From positions 1 to 44,084 of the forward strand of contig CAVFCJ010000001.1 of assembly GCA_963620965.1 (NCBI GenBank): DNA of 44,084 nt, read 5' to 3'. Position 1 is the first letter of the stretch; each line of letters begins with the position of its first letter. This DNA comes from a bacterium (GTDB lineage Bacteria; Bacillota; Clostridia; Christensenellales; CAG-917). The notes beneath the pieces were generated by a model. It ran no database searches and was not told where the DNA came from. It worked only from the letters and a program-made list of their open reading frames with translations. Position numbers and translations under genes: made by a program. This document shows positions 1-44,084 of the stretch, one piece after another.

Positions 1-2042
1 ACACCGAAATGGGCAAAATCGCAAACGCCCTCACCCAAGCCAAAGAGGGCAAAACGCCCTTGCAACAGAAGTTGTCGCAACTGAGCAAAATCCTCACCTA
101 CCTTGTCATCGGCATCTGTGTGGTAATATTTGCAGTCAGCCTCATTCGCGCAGGCGTTGGCGGCACTCTCAAAGCGGACACGGCGACAACCATACTCAAC
201 ACGTTTATGATCGCGGTATCGTTGGCGGTTGCGGCGATTCCCGAAGGGCTTGCCACCGTCGTCACGATCGTGCTTTCGATAGGTGTGACGAATATGTCAA
301 AGCGCAACGCTATCATACGAAAACTCACCGCAGTGGAAACTCTCGGTTGCACTCAAATCATCTGCTCGGACAAGACGGGCACCCTCACCCAAAACAAAAT
401 GACCGTAGTGGACCACTACGGCAGTGACGAAAACCTGCTTGCAAACGCAATGTCGCTCTGCTCGGATGCCGAGTACGACGAGGAAAAAGGAGAAGCGACG
501 GGCGAGCCGACAGAGTGCGCGCTCGTAAATTACGCAAAATCCCTATCTTTTGACAAGAACGAGCAAAAGGAACTTTATCCGCGAGTGGGCGAAATACCTT
601 TCGACTCTATGCGCAAGATGATGACCACGATACACACAGATAATAACGGCGACGTGTTGCAATTCACCAAAGGTGCGCCCGACGAAATCGTAAAACGCTG
701 CGCCTTCTACCTCGAGGACGGAAAAGAAATGCCCATGACAGACGACATGCGCGAAGAAATTCTTTCCGCAAATAAGGAAATGGCAGACAGAGCGCTCCGT
801 GTGCTTGCGGTTGCGAAAAAGCGTCTTGACCAACAAAAGAGCGAATACACCACAGAACAAGACGAAAAAGATATGTGCTTTGTGGGGCTTGTCGGCATGA
901 TAGACCCGGTACGTCCCGAAGTCAAACCTGCAATCGACGAGTGTAGAAAAGCGGGTATCCGCCCCATTATGATAACGGGCGACCACAAAGATACGGCGGT
1001 TGCAATCGCAATGCAACTCGGCATAATCACCGACCCCTCCGAGGCAATCACCGGTGCGGAACTCGACAAGATAAGCGACGAAGATTTTGCAAACGACGTG
1101 GAGAAATATTCGGTATACGCGCGCGTTCAACCCGAACATAAGACGAGAATCGTCAACGCATGGCGCGCAAAGGGCTACATCACGGCAATGACAGGCGACG
1201 GCGTGAACGACGCACCGTCCATCAAAAACGCGGACATCGGCGTGGGCATGGGCATAACGGGTACGGACGTGACCAAGAACGTTGCGGATATGATTCTCAC
1301 CGACGACAACTTCGCAACAATCGTATCGGCGGTCGGCGAAGGCAGACGTATTTACGACAATATTCGCAAATCCATTCAATTTCTGCTCGCGTCCAACCTC
1401 TCGGAAGTGCTGTCTATCTTTATCGCAACGCTTGCGGATTTCACGATATTCAAGCCCGCACATTTGCTTTGGATAAACCTCATCACCGACTGCTTCCCCG
1501 CCCTCTCGCTCGGCATGGAAGCGCCCGAGCGCGATATTATGAATCGTCCGCCGAGAAACAGCAAGGACGGCATCTTCGCAAGCGGTATGGGCGGCGCAAT
1601 CGGCTATCAAGGCGTGCTTATCACCCTCATCACTATAGCATCCTATTTTATCGGCGCAGAAGTGCTTGCAAAAATGCATCATGCCGAAGCAATCGAAAGC
1701 GGCGCATACAGCGCGAAAACGCTCGGCTCGTCTATGGCGTTTTTGACCCTCTCTATGGCGGAAATCTTCCATGCGTTCAATATGCGTTCCTTGCACGGCT
1801 CCATTTTCAAAATCAAGAAACAAAACTGGTGGCTGTGGGGCGCAGGCGTGCTTTCGCTGCTCCTTACCACTCTCGTCGTAGAAGTGCCGTTCCTTGCACA
1901 AGCGTTTGAACTTGCAGAACTCGACGGCGAAGAGTACGGCATCGCAATCGCGCTTGCAATCTCGATCATTCCTATGGTTGAAATCGTAAAAGCAATCGCA
2001 AGAGCGGTGCGCAAAAAGAAAGGCATTGTCCTTTCTGCATAA
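1..2042 (+). CDS. P-type cation-transporting ATPase, P2A (Ca2+-ATPase-like); 5' end cut by the window edge
   Basis: ORF 9..2042, with the frame open back to base 3 (TEMGKIA...). Contains the DKTGTLT phosphorylation motif, KGAPDEI, MITGDHKDTA, the TGDGVNDAPS hinge motif and C-terminal TM helices. Confidence 0.93.
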   Translation, partial: TEMGKIANALTQAKEGKTPLQQKLSQLSKILTYLVIGICVVIFAVSLIRAGVGGTLKADTATTILNTFMIAVSLAVAAIPEGLATVVTIVLSIGVTNMSKRNAIIRKLTAVETLGCTQIICSDKTGTLTQNKMTVVDHYGSDENLLANAMSLCSDAEYDEEKGEATGEPTECALVNYAKSLSFDKNEQKELYPRVGEIPFDSMRKMMTTIHTDNNGDVLQFTKGAPDEIVKRCAFYLEDGKEMPMTDDMREEILSANKEMADRALRVLAVAKKRLDQQKSEYTTEQDEKDMCFVGLVGMIDPVRPEVKPAIDECRKAGIRPIMITGDHKDTAVAIAMQLGIITDPSEAITGAELDKISDEDFANDVEKYSVYARVQPEHKTRIVNAWRAKGYITAMTGDGVNDAPSIKNADIGVGMGITGTDVTKNVADMILTDDNFATIVSAVGEGRRIYDNIRKSIQFLLASNLSEVLSIFIATLADFTIFKPAHLLWINLITDCFPALSLGMEAPERDIMNRPPRNSKDGIFASGMGGAIGYQGVLITLITIASYFIGAEVLAKMHHAEAIESGAYSAKTLGSSMAFLTLSMAEIFHAFNMRSLHGSIFKIKKQNWWLWGAGVLSLLLTTLVVEVPFLAQAFELAELDGEEYGIAIALAISIIPMVEIVKAIARAVRKKKGIVLSA

Positions 2043-2066
2043 CACGAAAAAAATAACGATAAAAAC

Positions 2067-2097
2067 AAAACCCCGAAAGATTTGCTTTCGGGGTTTT
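2067..2097. terminator. Bidirectional intrinsic terminator between the convergent ATPase and esterase genes
   Basis: Perfect 13-bp stem aaaaccccgaaag / ctttcggggtttt with loop atttg. A-run upstream and T-run downstream. Lies between the stop codons at 2042 and 2116. Confidence 0.8.
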
Positions 2098-2115
2098 GTT
2101 TTATGGATGTTGCAA

Positions 2116-3354
2116 TCAATAAAATTCTTTCGACGTGTTCAGTTTCCATTCGTCATAGCCTTGCGGATTGGGCGACTGCGTTTTGACAAATTCGCAATAT
2201 CTCTTGCGAATCTCGTCTGCAAGTTTGTAATCCTCCTCTCCGAATTTGCGCCACGGATGCTGATTCAAGCCGAATATATACCACAAATCCGCACTGTGCC
2301 ACGCGCCCTTGTCGTCACCGGGCAGCGGATGATAGAAATGCGACAGCCAAACCTTGCCTTTGCCTTTTTTCATCATTGTTTTCGCAATGCGTTCGAGATA
2401 CGGCGCGAGCAAGTCGTTTTTGGTAACGCCGAGAATACACGGAATTTGCTCGTCTTTGTATGCGTTTTTATAGAGGTCTTTTCTCACGATCTCGCCGTCG
2501 AAAACGGGCATCGTGGACAGCATAGACAATGCAAGATTCTTCTTGTTTTGTCTGTACCAAGCAAGGTAGAGGTCTTGCGAGTTGCAAGTTTTGGGGTCGA
2601 GACCTCTCTTTTGCAAATCCTTGCGCACTCTTGCAAAGAAGCGTTTTGCACGTTTAAGCGACTTGGGTGCAAATATACCGCGCACGCTTGCGCCGCCCGA
2701 AAGCATAATCGCGCCTTTGACCATCTCTTTTACCTTTGGCAACAGCACGAGGTTTTGCAAAGAAATCGCGCCCGCGCTCTGCCCCATAAGCGTTATACTC
2801 GACGGGTCGCCGCCGAAAACGGATATATTCTCTTTCACCCACTCGATTGCGCAAATCATATCGTAAAACGCGAGATTTTGCGCACCCTCGTCGGCATTGT
2901 ATCCGAACACGTTGAGCCGATAATTCGCGCAAACGCAAACCACGCCCTCTTTTGCTATTTCCGTTCCGTCAAAAGGACGCTCGTCGCTCGAACATATCAC
3001 GAACGCGCCTCCGTGAATATACAGCAAAACGGGCAGATTTTGCGCGTTTTTCGGCGCATAAATATTGAGATTCAAACAGTCTTCCGAGTGATGAAAAGTC
3101 AAACCTTGCCTAAACTCTTTATAGTAGAAAATATCCTGTTTGGATTTCGACTTGCTTTCGTCGAAAAACTGTCTGAATTGAGGACATCCGTCCCCTCTGC
3201 GCATAGCGTCGACTTCTTTTCCGAGCGGTTGCAAAAGCGGTTTTCGGAATCTTTCGCCCTTTGCGAATCTGATACCCAAAAACGCCGCCGTATCGCCCCT
3301 GTCGATGCCTCTTATAACATGATTTTGATTGTTGATAACGTATTCCATTTCCAA
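2116..3354 (-). CDS. Carboxylesterase, type-B family (alpha/beta hydrolase)
   Basis: 412-aa ORF with an HGGAF oxyanion-hole motif (YIHGGAFV) and a GQSAG nucleophile elbow (LMGQSAGAIS). The codon at 3354 is TTG, so the ATG at 3348 (MEYVINN) is an alternative start. Confidence 0.8.
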   Translation of the reverse strand: MEMEYVINNQNHVIRGIDRGDTAAFLGIRFAKGERFRKPLLQPLGKEVDAMRRGDGCPQFRQFFDESKSKSKQDIFYYKEFRQGLTFHHSEDCLNLNIYAPKNAQNLPVLLYIHGGAFVICSSDERPFDGTEIAKEGVVCVCANYRLNVFGYNADEGAQNLAFYDMICAIEWVKENISVFGGDPSSITLMGQSAGAISLQNLVLLPKVKEMVKGAIMLSGGASVRGIFAPKSLKRAKRFFARVRKDLQKRGLDPKTCNSQDLYLAWYRQNKKNLALSMLSTMPVFDGEIVRKDLYKNAYKDEQIPCILGVTKNDLLAPYLERIAKTMMKKGKGKVWLSHFYHPLPGDDKGAWHSADLWYIFGLNQHPWRKFGEEDYKLADEIRKRYCEFVKTQSPNPQGYDEWKLNTSKEFY

Positions 3355-3399
3355 ATTTATTTTATTTTCAAATGCGTTTGCCTACTACTTTAAATAAAA

Positions 3400-3805
3400 C
3401 TTCCCCCTTCCTCACGTGTTTGGTTCTTCCCCTACAAAGGTGTAGCGACGTGTACCCTAAAAAACACATCACCCCTTCCCTTCGGGCTTTCCCCTATTGC
3501 TCAAACTAACGCCAATTCTCTGCAAGTTTGCACATCGTTCGCAAGAGGGGAAGTCGGCACTCACATAGATAGGTATCGTTCTCTCATTATGCCACTGCGC
3601 TTTGTGCGCCAGGCAGTGGCCAACAGACGGCGCAGTCGCTTGTACTGTTCGTCAAGTTCGGCGCTCATAGGCTCGCCGCCGTTGCGGCTCGTGTTCCGTC
3701 TGCGAATTGGCATATTCCGCTTATGAGTAGACTACGAATAAGTTTTCATTTAACCGCTTGCGCACGAAGTGCGCTCTACCAAGCAGATAATCTTGCGAAA
3801 CTGCG
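3400..3805 (-). ncRNA. Candidate large structured ncRNA, copy 1 (family not identified)
   Basis: No ORF of 60 aa or more on either strand across 3394..4002. Hairpins: 3591-3598/3613-3620 (8 bp) and a gcgcac-ttcg-tgcgc hairpin near 3755-3772. Long-range helix cagacgg/ccgtctg (3624-3630 with 3696-3702). Blocks 3682..3708 and 3714..3742 recur in reverse complement at 44058..44084 and 43927..43955. The ends are approximate. Confidence 0.4.
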
Positions 3806-3810
3806 GCTTG

Positions 3811-3839
3811 ATTATTTATCCGTCTTGTTTTGATAGCAA
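3811..3839 (-). promoter_or_regulatory. Putative promoter for ncRNA copy 1
   Basis: Minus strand reads TTGCTA-N17-AATAAT. The same -10 hexamer and spacing occur upstream of copy 2. Tentative. Confidence 0.25.
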
Positions 3840-4002
3840 AGATTCTCTGCGCGGTTAGCGAAATGGTAAACACGCTTTAAAAAACGCGATATTTGAGCGT
3901 CAGACAAGAAAGCGTCCCTCGAACGGCAATCCTAATGTACAAATAGTACATGAATTGACGGTCGAGGTGCGCTGACGATGTATCACGCCAAATAGCGCGT
4001 TT

Positions 4003-5112
4003 TTACCATTTGTTCTCACAGTACTCGCAAAAAGCATACATATCCCTCACCTCGACTTTCGTGCCGTCATCGAGGATTGCCGTTCCGTTCCAGATGCCAT
4101 GGACTTGATGGCAATGCATGCGAAGAAGATTGAGGACGTTGAGGTCGCCGTGATGGTCGTAGAACGGAGTCATCGTGAAATCGAAACGACCGTCTTGCGA
4201 AACAAAGTGCCACGGCTCGGAGAATTTGTCGGGTTTGGGGAAAACTTCGACGTCGACGGGTCCGAATTTGTGCGCTTTGCCGTCCCAGAAGATTGCGGTT
4301 TCGGTGGCGTTTGACTCGTCGCCGATGCCCCACGTGATTTCAAAGCCGAACATATGGTCTTTTCCGTCGGGTCCTTGAACGACTTTCGAGCCGTTGCCCC
4401 AGTACCAAACCATTTTGTAGGGGGTGTTGACTCTGCCCCAGTCGAGGAAGGCAAACGTGTCCTTTTTGTCGAATTTCCAAACCTTTTCGCCCCAACGGAA
4501 AGTGCCTTCGCAGGGCATACAGTTTTGTTTGGTGGTCATAAAGTATCTTGTAGGATTGTCTTTGAACGGAAGCACGGTTGTGATGTTTTCAAGTCCGTCC
4601 ATAATGTCCATAGTGAAGTTTGCCTCGACCTCTTTACCCTTGAACTTACCCTTGAAATACATCGTTCTGACGTTGGTTTCGGTGACGACTTTCATATGCG
4701 TTTTGCCGACGGTGTGGTCGAGAACGTTCGGTTCGTCGCCCTTCGGCGGAAGCATATATTTTTTGCCGCCCAAGAACAGCGCGGTACATTCGAGAATCGT
4801 GCCCGAATGGATTTTGCTATTCTTATGCGCGTGGTGAAGGTCGGTTATGGACGCTTGTGCGTATCCGCCGATAGAGATGTTTGCAAAACTGATTTGCACC
4901 ATAAATTCGCCGTTCGAGATTTGATAGAAATCCCATTCTTTTTTACGGTTTGCGGGTTTCGCTTTTTCGCGGTCGTATTCGAACACGTTGTGTCTTGCCC
5001 AACCGGGTGCGAGCAATTTACCGTCGTCGCCGAGCAGCTTTGTAGGCTTCGTATACTCGGTTTGCTTGCTGTTGAGTTGACCCTCTAACCAACTCGGATA
5101 AGTTCTTTTCAT
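4003..5112 (-). CDS. DUF2804-family protein (function unknown)
   Basis: 369-aa ORF with a GGAGG RBS (plus strand cctcc at 5119-5123). The N-terminal pattern ...GKLLAPGWARH...KEWDFYQI... matches my recollection of DUF2804 proteins. Assignment is from memory of the family. Confidence 0.6.
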   Translation of the reverse strand: MKRTYPSWLEGQLNSKQTEYTKPTKLLGDDGKLLAPGWARHNVFEYDREKAKPANRKKEWDFYQISNGEFMVQISFANISIGGYAQASITDLHHAHKNSKIHSGTILECTALFLGGKKYMLPPKGDEPNVLDHTVGKTHMKVVTETNVRTMYFKGKFKGKEVEANFTMDIMDGLENITTVLPFKDNPTRYFMTTKQNCMPCEGTFRWGEKVWKFDKKDTFAFLDWGRVNTPYKMVWYWGNGSKVVQGPDGKDHMFGFEITWGIGDESNATETAIFWDGKAHKFGPVDVEVFPKPDKFSEPWHFVSQDGRFDFTMTPFYDHHGDLNVLNLLRMHCHQVHGIWNGTAILDDGTKVEVRDMYAFCEYCENKW

Positions 5113-43869: not shown

Positions 43870-43898
43870 TTGATAATTAATAATGAATAATTAATAAT
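43870..43898 (+). promoter_or_regulatory. Putative promoter for ncRNA copy 2
   Basis: TTGATA-N17-AATAAT in an AT-rich tract, with the same -10 hexamer as upstream of copy 1. Tentative. Confidence 0.3.
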
Positions 43899-43899
43899 T

Positions 43900-44084
43900 G
43901 CGGAAGGCGAAGCCTTAATCCGAACACTTATTCGGAGGCTACTCATACACGGAATCTGCTCGTTCAAAGACGAGATGAAAACCGCCGTCCGCGAACTTGC
44001 AGAGCGGACTTTTTTAACGCAAACTCATTCGAAGCGTACTTATTAACGGTATGTGCTAATTCGCAGACGGAACACGAGCCGCAA
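43900..44084 (+). ncRNA. Candidate large structured ncRNA, copy 2 (partial, runs off the window edge)
   Basis: 43927..43955 matches the reverse complement of 3714..3742 at 25/29 positions. 44058..44084 matches the reverse complement of 3682..3708 at 27/27. Hairpins aaggc-gaa-gcctt, ccgaa-cactta-ttcgg, ctcgt-tcaaag-acgag and gtccgc-N11-gcggac. No ORF. Confidence 0.4.

Follow-up and report, generated by a model that had tools for sequence, protein, structure and literature searches.

The interval between positions 3355 and 4002, analysed here, belongs to a 44,084-nt stretch of a clostridial genome (contig CAVFCJ010000001.1 of assembly GCA_963620965.1, order Christensenellales), which in its full length is referred to as the window. 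It is bounded upstream by a DUF2804 gene and downstream by a carboxylesterase gene, and all of its modules lie on the minus strand. Two repeat families are present: a palindromic repeat (PAL), and a composite formed of M1, a box, the A unit, and a tail. A conserved fold of several helices characterises the A unit, and the repeat family to which it belongs is restricted to one clade of uncultured Clostridia from the human gut. In the list below and thereafter, designations such as L001, L002, and L034 are fetched loci, that is, genome slices of about 8 kb or less.

4003..5112, minus strand: DUF2804 gene, the upstream neighbour of the interval
3880..4003, minus strand: PAL, a 124-nt palindromic, terminator-like repeat resembling a MITE (a miniature transposable element with inverted repeats), adjoining the DUF2804 stop codon
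3860..3875, minus strand: 3′ stem arm, unique sequence outside the repeats, forming a stem with the end of the DUF2804 gene
3754..3858, minus strand: M1, an internal fragment of a ~470-nt 'type B' element, with BLAST coverage from 40-50 loci
3704..3753, minus strand: linker and box, a junction sequence of ~50 nt, here a degenerate copy
3423..3703, minus strand: A unit, a structured module of ~280 nt
3392..3422, minus strand: tail, the 3′-terminal piece, CAAACACGUGAGGAAGGGGGAAG...
3355..3391, minus strand: esterase leader sequence, unique, where BLAST coverage from outside the locus falls to one, the orthologue L034
2116..3354, minus strand: carboxylesterase gene, the downstream neighbour, with its start codon at 3354
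43870..44084, plus strand: partial second array, found by BLAST, direct reading, and promoter scan

A preliminary description of this DNA had depicted the interval as non-coding and rich in hairpins, and its non-coding character was upheld. Neither strand has an open reading frame (ORF) of 60 aa or more, the longest comprises 50 aa, and the sole ORF overlap with 3355-4002 is that of an antisense shadow ORF at 2026..3393. Small ORFs of 45-50 aa in the interval were considered and rejected, as the conserved core of homologues contains indels of 1 nt and of other lengths that are not multiples of three; specifically, we regard the A-unit core as non-coding because of 1-nt indels of the kind GCAA-GG vs GCAACGG. 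No tRNA or tmRNA was found.

Conserved fold of the A unit

Read 5′ to 3′, the A unit begins with GCAGACGG and is composed of a 5′ domain (GCAGACGGAACACGAGCCGCAACGGCGGCGAG, helices P1-P3), the variable hairpin VH1, P5, the multi-helix domain P6, P7, P9, and a 3′ tail ending in GUAGGGGAAGAAC; the window copy has VH1 type 1 and the alpha version of P6. When 25-35 copies were folded as single sequences, the same helices recurred. RNAalifold, applied to a plain MAFFT alignment, detected no helices beyond the invariant 5′ ones, owing to misalignment of the variable domains, and this route was set aside. Covariance models were built for the 5′ half (R2, 35 pairs) and for the 3′ half (R1, 32 pairs). 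Within the window, R2 scored positions 3554-3703 at 119.3 bits and R1 scored positions 3423-3562 at 165.9 bits, the latter model having 39 matches overall.

In the R2 alignment (109 matches), 93.1% of the cells were paired and 22 of the 35 pairs were altered on both sides. The covariation score was 0.211, as against 0.098 for shuffled alignments (none of 500 reached 0.211) and at most 0.065 when the partners were slid. All nine inner pairs of VH1 showed three to five pair types, for example one that was CG in 45 copies, GC in 30, UA in 11, AU in seven, and unpaired in one. The R1 alignment (39 matches) had 84.8% of cells paired and 13 pairs altered on both sides, with a covariation score of 0.178 (controls: 0.116 for the one, at most 0.084 for the other). 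The outer helices of P6 switched cleanly (e.g., UA in 17 and CG in 15), and the inner helices of P6, together with parts of P1, were weakly supported. Both covariation alignments were fitted to their own models, and the three P6 versions represent lineages rather than independent events. Across 13 assemblies, the unpaired core motifs were near-invariant, the helices covaried, and hairpin lengths varied. The A unit therefore displays the generic marks of a structured non-coding RNA (ncRNA), namely compensatory changes and indels incompatible with coding, and the proposal that the minus strand carries conserved, RNA-type secondary structure is borne out by covariation among homologues. For the interval as a whole, fold z-scores relative to shuffled sequences were −2.25 on the minus strand and −1.15 on the plus strand; alone these are weak support, and the homologues and their covariation are decisive.

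Several hairpins that had been proposed for the interval lie where they were placed. The 8-bp pairing of 3591-3598 with 3613-3620 (gccactgc / gcagtggc) is one of two alternative pairings within VH1, the GCCGC-AACG-GCGGC hairpin occupies about 3671-3684, and the CUUCCCCU run opposite AGGGGAA corresponds to an inverted repeat (I4, 3489-3500 / 3541-3552, 92%). The 7-bp long-range pairing of 3624-3630 with 3696-3702 (cagacgg / ccgtctg) is present in the window, but it is not conserved across the family and was rejected as a family feature, its partner having been found solely in some VH1 type 1 copies. A 14-nt helix that would close the box and the unit together (3389-3402 / 3740-3753) was also rejected, being 79% complementary, uncompensated in L034, and without covariation in type B copies. 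Additionally, some A units (L062 245-410, L017, L066, L071, and others) have a ~190-nt insertion in the loop after GAGCGCCGAACUU; it is closed by the stem CACGCACAAG / CUUGUGCGUG and forms an expansion domain at a fixed site.

With respect to the strand, the R1 pairs included 135 G-U cells versus 58 A-C cells, and the minimum free energy of the A units was lower on the sense strand in 29 of 35. Along with the orientation of neighbouring genes (below), these values favour an RNA transcribed in the same sense as the upstream gene.

Copies, hosts, and turnover of the repeat family

An exact 20-mer, GCAGACGGAACACGAGCCGC, was taken from a 27-mer common to both window copies (in the interval and in the array at the window end) and used to scan genome contigs. 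The 13 species-representative gut clostridial assemblies with matches had 81 loci between them, many at contig ends. The assembly titles included Christensenella sp. UBA6880, Firmicutes bacterium CAG:238, CAG:475, and several 'uncultured Clostridiales'. Two repeat-bearing assemblies are titled Phascolarctobacterium succinatutens and Anaeroplasmataceae bacterium, unlike the other titles, and may be mislabelled or contaminated bins. Using nhmmer with the window unit we obtained 122 hits in the fetched loci, and model R2 gave 109 matches in 89 loci; in keeping with the multi-copy nature first suggested, the DNA fetched holds more than 100 A-unit copies. In metagenomes, a looser pattern found true copies in at least 56 among the 120 contigs listed, mostly from human-gut assemblies. 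The possibility that homologues would be confined to the source genome was thus not borne out, as copies occur in the 13 assemblies and in metagenome contigs. BLAST detected no match to the element among plasmid and phage records, and in viral contigs an 18-mer search returned one chance match, inside a coding region.

Nearly all nhmmer hits (112 of 122) were intergenic. The upstream gene was co-oriented with the element in 75 cases versus 29 (75 of 104), the element was co-oriented with tandem gene pairs in 25 versus eight, and convergent gaps outnumbered divergent ones by 15 to six. Many copies begin 0-25 nt past the upstream stop codon, and most are without a recognisable promoter. Units occur singly, in tandem (L023, L029, L062), nested, cut after the 5′ hairpin, or inverted, and their breakpoints cluster in the 5′ hairpin. 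Near about 190 copies, no recurrent transposase, reverse transcriptase, or IscB/TnpB-like ORF was seen, with clusters judged by eye and no Pfam scan. The most frequent neighbouring ORF family, which reads as an ABC transporter, was found at no more than 16 of 138 loci. The purine-rich 3′ tail was considered as a ribosome-binding site of the next gene and rejected, since its distances to starts are scattered and many downstream genes lie in the opposite orientation; a Shine-Dalgarno-like GGGGUGAU is missing from the beta and gamma versions.

Three related genome states, with flanking genes 89-93% identical, reveal how the interval is assembled. The window has PAL and the composite, L034 has the composite without PAL, and L001 and L002 have PAL without the composite. 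In L034, a 52-nt hairpin takes the place of PAL, and in L001 and L002 a different spacer of ~100 nt takes the place of the composite. The interval is therefore not one RNA gene, because its modules have been gained or lost independently in sister genomes; the idea of a single RNA gene of ~400-650 nt gives way to that of a mosaic in which no fewer than two repeat families, unrelated to each other, segregate independently. A hot spot was also noted 3′ of an orthologous gene of ~980 aa, read as an ABC transporter (L079, L159, L178, L065, L017, L057). There, what comes after PAL differs among species: either a type B element or an A unit in forward orientation, or else an A unit that is inverted and fused to PAL via a common motif, GAAGAACAA.

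Comparison with the orthologue L034 further separated the modules. Identity across the A unit was 98% (5′ domain), 91.5%, and 92.9%, and the tail was 96.8% identical. Elsewhere it was 78.0% at esterase codon position 3, 75.7% in M1, and 78.4% in the box, such that the M1 value is about the neutral rate. Because its identity is well above that of neighbouring third codon positions, the A unit is either under constraint or homogenised by gene conversion, while M1 and the box decay here. Moreover, VH1 exists in four versions and P6 in three, and 10 of the 12 combinations were seen, often in one genome; modules have therefore been exchanged between copies.

Finally, we encountered the Gut-1 RNA (RF01706) in related loci. 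A match in L063 (7814-7895, minus strand, 50.9 bits) was above the gathering score, and sub-threshold matches were found in L029 (944-1025 and 4926-4993, with 46.9 and 42.6 bits, respectively) and L059 (1588-1664, 41.6 bits). Gut-1 lies ~85 nt upstream of A-unit 5′ domains and in the same orientation (L063, L029, L059, L018, L065). It gave no hit in the window, and hence the interval is not Gut-1. Weinberg et al. (2010, PMC2864571) originally described Gut-1 as a likely independent ncRNA, reported from the human gut alone and not from any sequenced organism. Our data indicate that it is another module of the same mosaic arrays and thereby place it in Christensenellales-like gut Clostridia.

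Flanking modules and the array at the window end

PAL ends in an A-run and a T-run (AAAAACGCGCTATTTGG ... CAAATATCGCGTTTTT), for which reason we call it terminator-like. Its terminal arms (3880-3895 / 3989-4004) are 16 nt long and 94% complementary, and it is self-complementary over about 125 nt. Copies numbered 55 in 44 fetched loci, many beginning at a stop codon, and PAL-like hairpins follow several type B elements. Because it typically starts at a gene's stop codon, PAL is probably a bidirectional terminator. It is itself enclosed by a stem (inverted repeat I2, 3997-4011 / 3861-3875) of 15 nt and 93% complementarity, the 5′ arm of which consists of the last codons and the stop codon of the DUF2804 gene. 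In L034, the I2 stem is kept by a compensatory A>G / T>C change (the synonymous AAA>AAG) and encloses a small hairpin, not PAL.

M1 is central in the type B elements of L004, L013, L027, L028, L042, L054, L076, L079, and L080, which have the 5′ domain and 3′ tail of the A unit in common; the tail, CAAACACGUGAGGAAGGGGGAAG, is shared by type B ends, many A units, and gamma-type A units. M1 contains the GCGCAC-UUCG-UGCGC hairpin, which had been correctly noted (about 3757-3771) and which has the stem variants GCGCA/UGCGC, GCGUG/CACGC, and GCACA/UGUGC. The promoter that had been suggested to drive the interval, TTGCTA-N17-AATAAT at 3839..3811, also lies inside M1. The site exists and has 9 of 12 matches, but its role as a promoter is unsupported: about 1.3 sites of that strength are expected by chance in the region, the −10 hexamer is variable among M1 copies, and M1 elsewhere forms the middle of longer elements rather than the start of one.

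The box precedes most units and has the family consensus AACGAACAC-TTATTCAAGGCGTACTTATAAACGGAATGTGCTAATTC, derived from a position-by-position profile of 68 copies. Further window copies are at 43928-43959 and about 44026-44062. Checked by eye for extracytoplasmic function (ECF)-type, sigma-54, and sigma-70 promoters, the box contained one weak candidate, CGAACA-N17-TATAAA.

These further boxes belong to the array at 43870..44084, which had been reported as a second copy of the interval. The relationship is real, but the copy is partial and cut by the window end. Specifically, 44013-44084 is the reverse complement of 3682-3753 (82% identity by BLAST, including the exact 27-mer), so that before the window ends the two have in common only the junction box plus 22 nt at the start of the 5′ domain; a third partial match to the interval was found by BLAST at 43922-43972. 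A look-up of the acyltransferase protein, using each of two alternative start codons, aimed at the contig past the window end and yielded no record. The array consists, in order, of an AT-rich module, a hairpin (43900-43927), a box (43928-43959), a small hairpin, a terminator-like element (43987-44015), and a second box, and ends with the first 22 nt of the 5′ domain at the window end. The AT-rich module (43870-43898, plus strand) contains TTGATA-N17-AATAAT and TAATAAT repeats, with 10 of 12 sigma-70 matches, and an equivalent promoter-like module is present before 13 other copies (e.g., L027, L039, L066, L080), often after a terminator and before a hairpin and box. Judging from these promoter-like modules, some arrays may be independent transcription units. 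The terminator-like hairpin between the boxes, GUCCGC-GAACUUGCAGA-GCGGAC followed by U4-6 (U6 in the window; 43987-44015, plus strand), was also seen in about 17 related loci, and its layout resembles a leader or attenuator ahead of the next unit.

Apart from the repeats, the window has a giant ORF of 8934 aa at 15812-42616 (minus strand). In 7500 residues tested it had no Pfam match at E ≤ 1e-5, and a lipoprotein-type signal, MRMRKLSLVLLLVLVSVMLFGLVAC, is located about 110 residues past the first ATG. The product is probably a giant surface protein.

Readings of the family and comparison with known systems

We have moderate confidence in the reading that the A unit is a cis-acting or semi-selfish structured RNA repeat, mosaic in composition and specific to its clade. 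Transcription of the A unit would follow the strand of the upstream gene; the resulting RNA would be carried in the 3′ or intercistronic portion of that gene's transcript or, where the unit has a promoter module of its own, be produced from that module. The folded RNA, or a protein-binding module formed by it, would then act in cis on transcript end, stability, or processing, as REP/BIME and pneumococcal BOX elements are likewise thought to do. The family would persist semi-selfishly, with spread and reshuffling taking place via recombination between copies or by a mobilising function elsewhere in the genome.

A number of observations weigh against this reading. In the sister comparisons (L001, L002, L034), there is no clean insertion boundary or target-site duplication, and the spacer is replaced instead of being filled or empty. 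Gene conversion among copies could mimic purifying selection. The folding z-scores of A units are equal on both strands (−2.3 each), the assignment of strand rests on gene orientation and on G-U counts from sense-fitted alignments, the orientation bias could itself be a replication-strand bias, and a single-stranded DNA substrate on that strand is compatible with the same data as an alternative to RNA. Moreover, the near-invariant unpaired core exceeds the needs of REP/BOX-like stabilisers and better suits the RNA of a ribonucleoprotein (RNP) or a ribozyme, and the promoter- and terminator-like modules of the arrays suggest stand-alone RNA genes.

The latter two points lead to an alternative that we consider unlikely, in which the A unit, type B, and Gut-1 would be trans-acting ncRNA genes, acting as RNP or catalytic RNA, with their own promoters and PAL-like terminators and with paralogues that differ in peripheral domains. 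Such genes would fit an unpaired core that is near-invariant over 13 assemblies while the helices covary, the better conservation of the A unit relative to synonymous sites, the sigma-70-like AT-rich modules (10 of 12 matches) located after terminators and before at least 13 arrays, and the PAL-like hairpins behind several type B elements. Gut-1, which is co-resident, was also rated a likely independent ncRNA (PMC2864571). However, a promoter is not recognisable in most copies, and many begin no more than 25 nt past a stop codon; the window copy itself is flanked by two co-oriented genes and preceded by a box and an M1 that are decaying. Copies that are truncated, inverted, or nested are frequent, which is atypical of a housekeeping RNA gene, and no partner protein gene is linked to the family.

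Likewise unlikely is the related proposal that the A unit, type B, and Gut-1 are the RNA of an unrecognised RNP or RNA-based mobile system in Christensenellales-like bacteria. By analogy with HEARO, they could be a scaffold or guide RNA served by an unlinked protein, or else a self-processing RNA. The invariant junctions would, on this reading, form the active or protein-binding core and the peripheral domains would tune specificity.

We also judge it improbable that the family is a non-autonomous mobile element, its folded strand being the substrate of an unlinked mobilising enzyme. The enzyme would be either a hairpin-recognising single-strand DNA transposase of the IS200/IS605 or RAYT type, or a reverse transcriptase that copies the RNA in the manner of short interspersed nuclear elements (SINEs), in which case template switching would create the mosaics. 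The clade carries dozens of copies, with matches at contig ends, and orthologous sites differ in the presence and orientation of the element. Tandem and nested copies with breakpoints clustering in the 5′ hairpin, the occurrence of the 3′ end GAAGAACAA in a PAL arm as well, and the MITE-like terminal inverted repeats of the palindromic PAL all point in the same direction. Set against them, no transposase or reverse transcriptase was found beside any of the about 190 copies, the A unit is devoid of terminal inverted repeats, neither a target-site duplication nor a clean empty site was seen, and the asymmetry between upstream and downstream gene orientation suits transcription units over replication-strand bias.

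That the A unit serves as a gene-specific 5′ leader (riboswitch or attenuator) of the carboxylesterase at 2116..3354 is very improbable. It does end about 70 nt before the esterase start on the same strand, an arrangement kept in L034, but L001 and L002 have both genes without the element, there is no riboswitch family match, and the unit elsewhere adjoins unrelated genes, including in 15 convergent cases, at no fixed distance to their starts.

Least credible is the first interpretation of the locus, a single RNA of ~400 nt of the ROOL, GOLLD, OLE, or raiA type, or an ORF-less group II intron fragment, expressed from 3839..3811, since the size, hairpin density, and multi-copy nature that recommended it are countered by independently segregating modules, a promoter at chance level, and the absence of any match to these families even at E ≤ 10. 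The accompanying remark that no consensus could be matched was upheld: with Rfam 15, the whole window gave no hits at gathering thresholds, and positions 3200-4200 at E ≤ 10 gave only the chance-level hits mir-23c and Pseudomonas RNA thermometer. The homologous arrays in L023 (tandem) and L027 (type B) likewise contained nothing relevant to the A unit in Rfam. The hallmarks of group II introns are GUGYG at the 5′ end, the catalytic AGC triad in domain V, and, in many cases, an intron-encoded reverse transcriptase. Membership in that group was rejected because neither Intron_gpII nor group-II-D1D4 was hit in Rfam, no recurrent reverse-transcriptase-like ORF family occurs near the copies, and the unit starts with GCAGACGG. 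The A unit is thus outside any named large-RNA class. Our literature search returned nothing specific on a described repeat or RNA in Christensenellales, and the A-unit core strings are missing from the first 200 of the 438 supplementary files of the 2010 motif survey, which were those searched.

If the A unit is indeed a structured RNA repeat of the kind we favour, an abundant clade of uncultured gut Clostridia carries uncatalogued, large, modular RNA repeats with a constrained core, and the orphan Gut-1, known from gut metagenomes alone since 2010, gains a genomic home and context. The repeat would also explain intergenic assembly breaks in these genomes. Moreover, the family would offer a natural set of domains swapped onto a fixed core, suited to the study of RNA module exchange, and this set could point to a partner protein or a mobilising enzyme. 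Even if it were merely a selfish repeat, its annotation would still prevent false calls of novel single-copy RNA genes.

Among known systems, Gut-1 shares with the A unit its gut habitat as well as the arrays and orientation in which it occurs. It differs in being a 77-nt row of three hairpins with GUGAAAU spacers, and the A unit has neither its sequence nor its architecture. HEARO (RF02033) was found by comparative genomics without a function and was later shown to be the IscB omega-RNA. Like the A unit, it is a multi-copy, strongly structured RNA, of ~300 nt in its case; HEARO often has many copies per genome and is found in mobile contexts. The A unit has no Rfam hit to it at E ≤ 10 and no evidence for a variable guide segment. 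Furthermore, no cluster of IscB-, IsrB-, or TnpB-like ORFs, as would be expected for HEARO or a TnpB omega-RNA, was seen by eye, without a Pfam scan, among 1079 ORFs lying within 2.5 kb of copies.

With respect to MITEs, the likeness is confined to PAL, which at ~124 bp is small, ORF-free, abundant, and intergenic and forms one long hairpin with 16-nt terminal inverted repeats. No target-site duplication or parent insertion sequence was identified for it, and PAL differs further in usually adjoining a stop codon and in its A and T runs, which are like those of a bidirectional terminator. In the A unit, no terminal inverted repeats join the ends of 3423-3703.

The REP/BIME repeats of Enterobacteria and Pseudomonas are closer in distribution. 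Both they and the A unit are extragenic, many-copy mosaics of a few modules that vary in order and orientation, placed mostly at the 3′ ends of transcription units, with no linked gene and with the ability to fold as RNA. REPs are simple, imperfect palindromes of ~35 nt (range ~20-40 nt) that alternate in orientation, have linkers of fixed type, and are mobilised by the RAYT transposase, whereas the A unit is ~280 nt and has nine or more helices, pairing over long distances, and unpaired motifs that are invariant. The short palindrome of the REP type is absent from it, PAL being the only long palindrome in the interval. Pneumococcal BOX (boxA-boxB(n)-boxC), RUP, and SPRITE are streptococcal repeats that resemble the A-unit family in being modular, non-coding, and intergenic, with variable order and number of modules and with predicted stable RNA structure and predicted co-transcription with neighbouring genes. 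BOX elements, with modules of 45-60 nt, have no sequence similarity to the A unit and are without a conserved multi-domain core or domain swapping. The A-unit family is therefore new to Rfam, and its closest kinds are mosaic repeats of the BIME and BOX types; it is set apart from these by its size and by the complexity of its structure.

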